Part shown: positions 2,117 to 2,348 of the stretch, piece after piece
Position numbering within the stretch: the stretch's first letter is position 1
Layout: every line of letters starts with the position of its first letter
From: Flavobacteriales bacterium
GTDB lineage: Bacteria > Bacteroidota > Bacteroidia > Flavobacteriales_F > PHOS-HE28
Direction of reading: 5' to 3'
Length of the DNA: 64,000 nucleotides
Assembly (NCBI GenBank): GCA_016713865.1
Contig: JADJOG010000001.1
Location: 2,274-66,273, forward strand
The notes under the pieces: generated by a model
What the model was told of the DNA's origin: nothing
Seen by the model: only the letters and a program-made list of their open reading frames with translations
Database searches by the model: none
Translations under genes and position numbers: made by a program

Positions 2117-2118
2117 GG

Positions 2119-2248
2119 CGGGGGGGGGGGGGGGGGGGGGGGGGGGGGGGGGGGGGGGGGGGGGGGGGGGGGGGGGGGGGGGGGGGGGGGGGGGGGGGGG
2201 GGGGGGGGGGGGGGGGGGGGGGGGGGGGGGGGGGGGGGGGGGGGGGGG
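2119..2248. repeat. Homopolymer tract of about 130 consecutive G, followed by G/C-rich low-complexity sequence through ~2335.
   Basis: Read directly in the sequence. It lies between the divergent ppx and abgT start codons. It produces spurious poly-Gly and poly-Pro ORFs on the two strands. Confidence 0.95.
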
Positions 2249-2348
2249 TCCCCCCAAAGGGAGGGGGGGAAGTATCGGGGGGGGGGGGGGGGCCCCGCGC
2301 CCTCCCCCGCCCCCGGGGGGCTTTCTTCGCCGATCATCATTCCAGCAC

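Follow-up and report, generated by a model that had tools for sequence, protein, structure and literature searches.

The 129-nt poly-G run between ppx and abgT in a Flavobacteriales MAG is almost certainly of technical origin

The window analysed here, a 64,000-nt stretch of contig JADJOG010000001.1 (Flavobacteriales bacterium, assembly GCA_016713865.1), contains an extraordinarily long run of G followed by G/C-rich sequence in the spacer between two divergent genes. This raised the question of whether such a tract belongs to the organism or was introduced during sequencing and assembly and, if so, how. The run had been described in a preliminary description as about 130 G at positions 2119-2248. 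A long run was indeed present, but since position 2119 is a C, its exact extent is 129 G (2120-2248). Similarly, a second run following 'TATC' had been quoted as 14 G, where we counted 16 (2277-2292). The complete ppx-abgT spacer spans 2117-2348 (232 nt) and reads, from 5' to 3', GGC, 129 G, 'TCCCCCCAAAGGGAGGGGGGGAAGTATCGG', 16 G, 'CCCCGCGCCCTCCCCCGCCCCCGGGGGG' up to 2320 and 28 nt of normal sequence, followed by the ATG of abgT at 2349. In the following, the 72 nt of G/C-rich sequence past the G run (2249-2320) are termed the junk, and the G run and the junk together (2120-2320, 201 nt) the patch. The features of the locus are:

1190-2116, minus strand: Ppx/GppA-family phosphatase gene, 308 aa, start codon at 2116-2114; Pfam PF02541 (Ppx-GppA), 3.4e-36; real and intact
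2117-2119: GGC, the last bases that are still native-like (most relatives read 'cat GGCGCGAAGCTA', the relative L001 'cat GTGC'); blastn homology to the same-species contigs L153-L155 ends at 2120
2120-2248, plus strand: poly-G run of 129 G, an insertion of ~125 nt relative to the native spacer; judged artefactual
2249-2278, plus strand: mildly corrupted native spacer, 'TCCCCCCAAAGGGAGGGGGGGAAGTATCGG', matching 'TCCCCTCGAAAGCGAGAGGGCGAAGCTATCGG' of L001 in 26 of 32 aligned columns
2279-2320, plus strand: heavily corrupted spacer, collinear with L001; G or C at 41 of 42 positions
2321-2348, plus strand: intact abgT-proximal spacer including the conserved 'CTTTCTTCGCC'; 93% identity to L001 here
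2349-3869, plus strand: AbgT-family transporter gene, 506 aa; Pfam PF03806, 1.5e-203; real and intact
2044-2340, minus strand: spurious poly-Pro ORF of 98 aa, made by the tract
269-2521, plus strand: spurious ORF, made by the tract
2100-2348, plus strand: spurious in-frame upstream extension on the abgT side (ORF 2100-3869, 589 aa, open through the tract)
2117-2752, minus strand: spurious in-frame upstream extension on the ppx side (ORF 1190-2752, 520 aa, open through the tract)

Within the 64 kb, the patch was the sole outlier in composition and complexity. The longest homopolymer outside 2100-2330 comprised 6 nt, no 40-nt window outside the patch exceeded 85% G+C, and the patch was the only region to reach at least 87.5%; it also exhibited the lowest dinucleotide entropy. 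By our own arithmetic, a run of at least 129 G would arise by chance with a probability of ~3e-64 at the G fraction of 0.296. A scan of the whole window against Rfam (gathering threshold) and for tRNA genes returned no family and no tRNA gene. Tandem repeats with periods of 117 nt and 249/496 nt were observed at 54547-54941, 55207-56379, 60176-60481 and 62076-62347, inside three large minus-strand ORFs (505, 1128 and 1744 aa) that gave only weak Ig_2 and TSP_3 Pfam matches and look like repetitive surface proteins.

The Pfam matches listed above confirmed the proposed identity of the flanks as divergent ppx and abgT genes. Likewise, both of the ORFs that had been named as spurious poly-Gly and poly-Pro products of the tract, 269-2521 on the plus and 2044-2340 on the minus strand, were found. 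Public records nevertheless hold the proper gene products. The window Ppx is identical to MBK7943775.1 over 308/308 residues and the 506-aa AbgT matches MBK7943776.1 exactly. Further exact matches were obtained for MBK7943777.1 (ValS), MBK7943803.1 and MBK7943814.1, and all five NCBI proteins sit on one 230,279-nt contig designated 'MAG: Flavobacteriales bacterium'. Since the accession numbers of Ppx and AbgT are consecutive, nothing has been annotated between the two genes, and the correct starts were chosen. NCBI has the short correct forms, and no poly-Gly-extended or otherwise extended form of these ORFs is on record. The public annotation is not polluted by poly-Gly or poly-Pro ORFs. An exact look-up of eight window proteins in the contig index gave no match.

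The window Ppx belongs to a protein-collection cluster with a 99%-identity member, and that protein is encoded on three contigs (L153, L154 and L155) from three samples, represented by two ENA assemblies and one Logan assembly. These contigs share 96.6-98.2% nucleotide identity with the window on both flanks (96.6-98.0% in ppx up to 2120), and the identity amounted to 98.5% over 28.5 kb when three further contigs, found via another gene, were added. The blastn homology of L153-L155 to the window stops at 2120 and returns at 2322. Between these breakpoints, the three contigs carry no tract and have 1,154 nt with a gene for a 349-aa secreted protein, which also occurs in several relatives:

L153:2853-3902, L154:4926-5975 and L155:707-1756, ppx strand: 349-aa gene (1.05 kb) with a C-terminal Por_Secre_tail (type IX secretion) domain
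L002:1018-2064 and the ends of L003, L004 and L057: 349-aa gene directly upstream of ppx in relatives

Neither L001 nor the more distant syntenic relatives have the gene, and no copy of it was found in the 64-kb window. Its patchy occurrence among strains and relatives indicates that the locus is polymorphic and that the patch lies exactly on the polymorphic segment. Three features expected of an artefact at a structural-variant site thus coincide in the patch: it is absent from independent same-species assemblies, its edges fall on the breakpoints, and its composition is an outlier. The gene-less spacer that we propose for the window strain was seen in 0/3 same-species contigs. In L002 (L002:910-2092), the closest GTDB relative with the 349-aa gene, a 10-N scaffold gap is located inside the gene, indicating that the same interval was also hard to assemble in another project.

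To place the spacer in a wider context, related loci were collected by a protein-guided scan of one genome per species, which yielded 56 loci, all from Flavobacteriales MAGs, the closest Ppx being 96% identical. The total rose to 94 with 38 loci from metagenome contigs, likewise found by a protein-guided scan and all from relatives with at most 93% identity; an exact 23-mer scan of metagenome contigs gave no match. One contig, L159, begins inside ppx and therefore holds no spacer. The divergent ppx/abgT order was present in eight loci, seven of which have clean spacers of 55-115 nt, while the eighth is L002, whose interval of 1,183 nt holds the 349-aa gene. Homopolymers of at least 10 nt were absent from all 94 related loci. 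The absence of the tract from the three same-species contigs and from all relatives bears out the initial suspicion of an artefact, and we consider it almost certain that the patch with its G run is of technical origin and not the organism's DNA.

Comparison of the syntenic relatives also revealed conserved spacer elements, namely 'GCGCGAAGCTA' close to the start of ppx and 'GCTTTCTTCGCC' ~16-20 nt ahead of the abgT start; 'CTTTCTTCGCC' is kept in all of them. Read on the ppx strand, 'GCGCGAAGCTA' becomes 'TAGCTTCG', which is close to the Bacteroidota -7 promoter motif TAnnTTTG. In the relatives, 2-26 nt separate the conserved putative promoter sequence GCGAAGCTA from the ppx start, compared with ~150 nt for its degraded copy in the window. 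'GCGCGAAGCTA' and 'GCTTTCTTCGCC' form an imperfect inverted repeat, GGCGAAG / CTTCGCC (window 2321-2331; L001:5892-5990; L007, L008, L011, L031, L045 and L064). The L001-type hairpin element was also looked for in the rest of the window and across the loci, and occurs in L001 only.

The origin of the junk was addressed by local alignment to the spacers of the relatives. Against the L001 spacer, the 72 nt reached a score of 57 compared with 31.7 +/- 3.8 for shuffled sequences (z = 6.7), which none of 1000 shuffles attained, and the first 30 nt alone (2249-2278) gave z = 7.3, again with 0/1000 shuffles reaching the score. No similarity was found to the spacer of any other relative. A derivation of the junk from the interval that holds the 349-aa gene in the same-species contigs was rejected, as no alignment to the L153 interval was obtained (z = -2.4); the abgT-side spacer of L153 gave z = -1.1. 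The differences from L001 followed a striking pattern. Fifteen A/T-to-G/C changes and no reverse change were counted, 14 of the 15 within 2279-2320, and all 24 junk mismatches (24/24) equal an adjacent base. In the heavily corrupted half, G/C positions were retained, whereas A/T positions had taken on the G or C beside them. The coding flanks, by comparison, differ from L001 by 97 A/T-to-G/C and 86 reverse changes (Fisher p = 1.7e-4 versus 15:0 in the junk). By type, the changes comprised 4 A to C, 3 A to G, 5 T to C and 3 T to G, with the qualification that L001 is not an exact reference. It represents a different species (92% and 86% nucleotide identity in the flanking genes), so that some of the seeming corruption may be true divergence.

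Once the extra G are discounted, the window spacer measures ~103-110 nt and is collinear with the 111-nt spacer of L001. Native-type sequence restarts ~5 nt past the point where it stops, and the spacer lengths of 232 versus 111 nt imply that ~125 nt were added. These alignments show that the junk is a short native spacer like that of L001 in corrupted form. The preliminary description had held that the tract replaces the promoter region. However, ~100 nt of native spacer are still present, 28 nt of them intact next to abgT and 72 nt corrupted yet collinear with L001. With ~125 G inserted and the next 72 nt smoothed to G/C, the promoter region has not simply been replaced.

We then considered which sequencing technology could underlie the contig. 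The accession MBK7943775 falls between those of the Ppx proteins on JADJKO010000001 (MBK7381764) and on JADKHI010000003/JADKJM010000009 (MBL0036113, MBL0127689). The isolate names of these MAGs follow the naming format of PMC8012365 (Singleton et al. 2021). Accession order and naming thus suggest that the window MAG stems from the Danish activated-sludge (wastewater) Nanopore set. That set was sequenced on PromethION R9.4.1, basecalled with Guppy 2.2.3 flip-flop and assembled with Canu 1.8 at corMinCoverage=0, and the assembly was polished with Racon, twice with medaka and lastly with Racon again, this time on HiSeq X 2x150 reads (PMC8012365). The HiSeq series is a four-colour one (PMC13218037). 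The window also exhibited small indels relative to the same-species short-read contigs L156 and L157, at ~34049, ~38103, 38997-39025 and ~39148. For instance, 2 nt inserted near 38103 break up a 770-aa gene, intact in L156 and L157, into the ORFs 36775-38154 and 38106-39089. These small indels, including the gene-splitting one, fit a long-read origin and are probably residual long-read consensus errors.

Based on these comparisons, the 201 nt at 2120-2320 are probably a consensus or polishing error in a long-read MAG, situated over a gene-less spacer, and the true sequence of the strain would most likely be a clean, L001-like spacer of ~110 nt. We picture its formation as follows. The locus would vary between strains, some with and some without the 349-aa gene, so that in a mixed population few long reads may have backed the gene-less path that was assembled. 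One or a few bad long-read segments could then have been frozen in by a consensus that tolerates single-read coverage, and the polishers would have failed to repair the patch, as it cannot be spanned by alignments of reads from the alternative allele. As a guess from general knowledge, a stalled or mis-scaled pore signal might have been basecalled as G and as G/C-only sequence. The corruption is non-monotonic, however, being mild beside the G run, heavier beyond it and ending abruptly, a course not expected from any simple signal decay. Searching the literature for long G runs produced by Nanopore basecalling, or by this pipeline, returned no relevant paper. Of the options raised beforehand, a gap closed with low-complexity reads came nearer the mark than two-colour chemistry.

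A collapse of the locus would account for some of the same facts. In that case, the 349-aa gene and the 1,154-nt segment around it would be present in the strain but collapsed or passed over during assembly, the 201 nt of junk filling their place. All three same-species contigs (3/3) have this gene between abgT and ppx, as do the next relatives L002, L003, L004 and L057, the breakpoints 2120 and 2322 bracket exactly the gene segment, and the window is devoid of any copy. Yet the junk resembles neither the L153 interval nor its abgT-side spacer and is instead L001-like and collinear, and the window spacer minus the extra G is about as long as the gene-less L001 spacer, which renders a collapse unlikely. 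We judged it quite unlikely that no-signal G calls of Illumina instruments, from two-colour or other low-quality short reads, entered at assembly, gap closing or polishing. Illumina reads were used in the last polishing step of the inferred pipeline, and poly-G tails are a documented two-colour artefact of NextSeq/NovaSeq instruments, in which fading signal turns bases into G (PMC6129281, PMC13218037, PMC13465854). The inferred set, on the other hand, relied on HiSeq X (PMC8012365), which belongs to a four-colour series (PMC13218037). Moreover, dark cycles exchange bases 1:1 at read ends, whereas here ~125 nt were added inside a 230-kb contig, and the junk contains C runs alternating with G runs. 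The four change types occur in similar numbers rather than as the A-to-C and T-to-G changes of one-channel loss, and a model of single-channel loss was rejected since it does not fit the substitutions relative to L001. The two-colour cause put forward initially is therefore probably wrong: the likely use of HiSeq X, the bases gained on balance, the presence of C runs and the types of substitution all fit it poorly.

Could the tract be real after all, as a giant hypermutable G tract (a contingency or G-quadruplex element) in the shared ppx/abgT promoter region? Phase-variable tracts are known to occur in divergent promoter regions, and the site is such a region; the sequence has been deposited in a public genome, and its flanks are clean up to the edges. 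Against this, known bacterial phase-variable tracts measure ~7-20 nt, vary among related strains and have normal flanks, and the window run is roughly tenfold longer. None of the eight syntenic spacers or the three same-species contigs contains such a tract, nor does any of the 94 loci hold even a homopolymer of at least 10 nt. The 72-nt 3' neighbour is not a normal flank: it is smoothed to G/C with one-directional changes, and we know of no biology that produces A/T-to-G/C conversion of this kind. The displacement of GCGAAGCTA from its usual distance to the ppx start also speaks against a real tract, which is thus extremely unlikely. Nor do we lend more than the faintest credence to a real extreme homopolymer in one strain, formed where a gene was deleted from between ppx and abgT and adjoined by a zone of G/C-biased mutation; if true, no longer homopolymer would be known from any bacterial chromosome.

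The importance of the patch lies in data quality only, as it puts 201 nt of invented sequence into a shared promoter region of a public MAG contig. It represents a false positive for any mining of repeats, G-quadruplexes, promoters or poly-Gly/poly-Pro proteins. The case also cautions against automatically blaming two-colour Illumina chemistry for a long G run in an assembly. Such patches can be recognised without reads, namely by same-species homology that stops at the edges combined with one-directional A/T-to-G/C changes inside.

Public assemblies of diverse origin repeatedly show long G/C runs as a defect. Among 2.9 million viral contigs of IMG/VR, a scan detected 59 runs of at least 60 G or C in 58 unrelated contigs, with lengths of 60-248 nt (median 76, maximum 248). 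The majority (44/59) abut the end of the locus DNA examined, and in 20 of 74 flanks the 40 nt next to the run reach at least 85% G+C, with a gradual return to normal sequence in some. The orientation of terminal G runs revealed no asymmetry that would suggest 3' read tails. Internal G/C runs of 115-248 nt were observed at L127:2179-2328, L134:4629-4776, L148:32-279 and L143:149-263. Identifiers of IMG/VR contigs with internal runs (2974616868, 2974632003, 638275981) look like isolate-genome record numbers, for which reason a single cause should not be assumed.

Set against known systems, the tract shares with the contingency tracts of Neisseria, Haemophilus and Campylobacter a G homopolymer in a promoter or 5' region, but differs from them by its 129 nt, its absence from all relatives and its corrupted flanks. 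It resembles Illumina two-colour tails (fastp, PMC6129281) in its abrupt pure G run, in the nearby bases turned into G and in not being template; in contrast to such tails, it is internal, adds ~125 nt rather than overwriting sequence and is followed by C runs, in an assembly most likely made from Nanopore and four-colour HiSeq X reads. The runs in IMG/VR are alike in the G/C-rich junk that adjoins about a third of them (e.g., L099, L103, L112, L152), but they are mostly terminal, whereas the window run is internal and bridged on both sides. From known long-read consensus errors at structural-variant sites the tract differs in that, to our knowledge, no G run above 100 nt has been published from this pipeline. 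It agrees with them in that its breakpoints are the limits of the presence or absence of a 1.05-kb gene, that the contig has small indels elsewhere, and that corMinCoverage=0 kept single-read regions.
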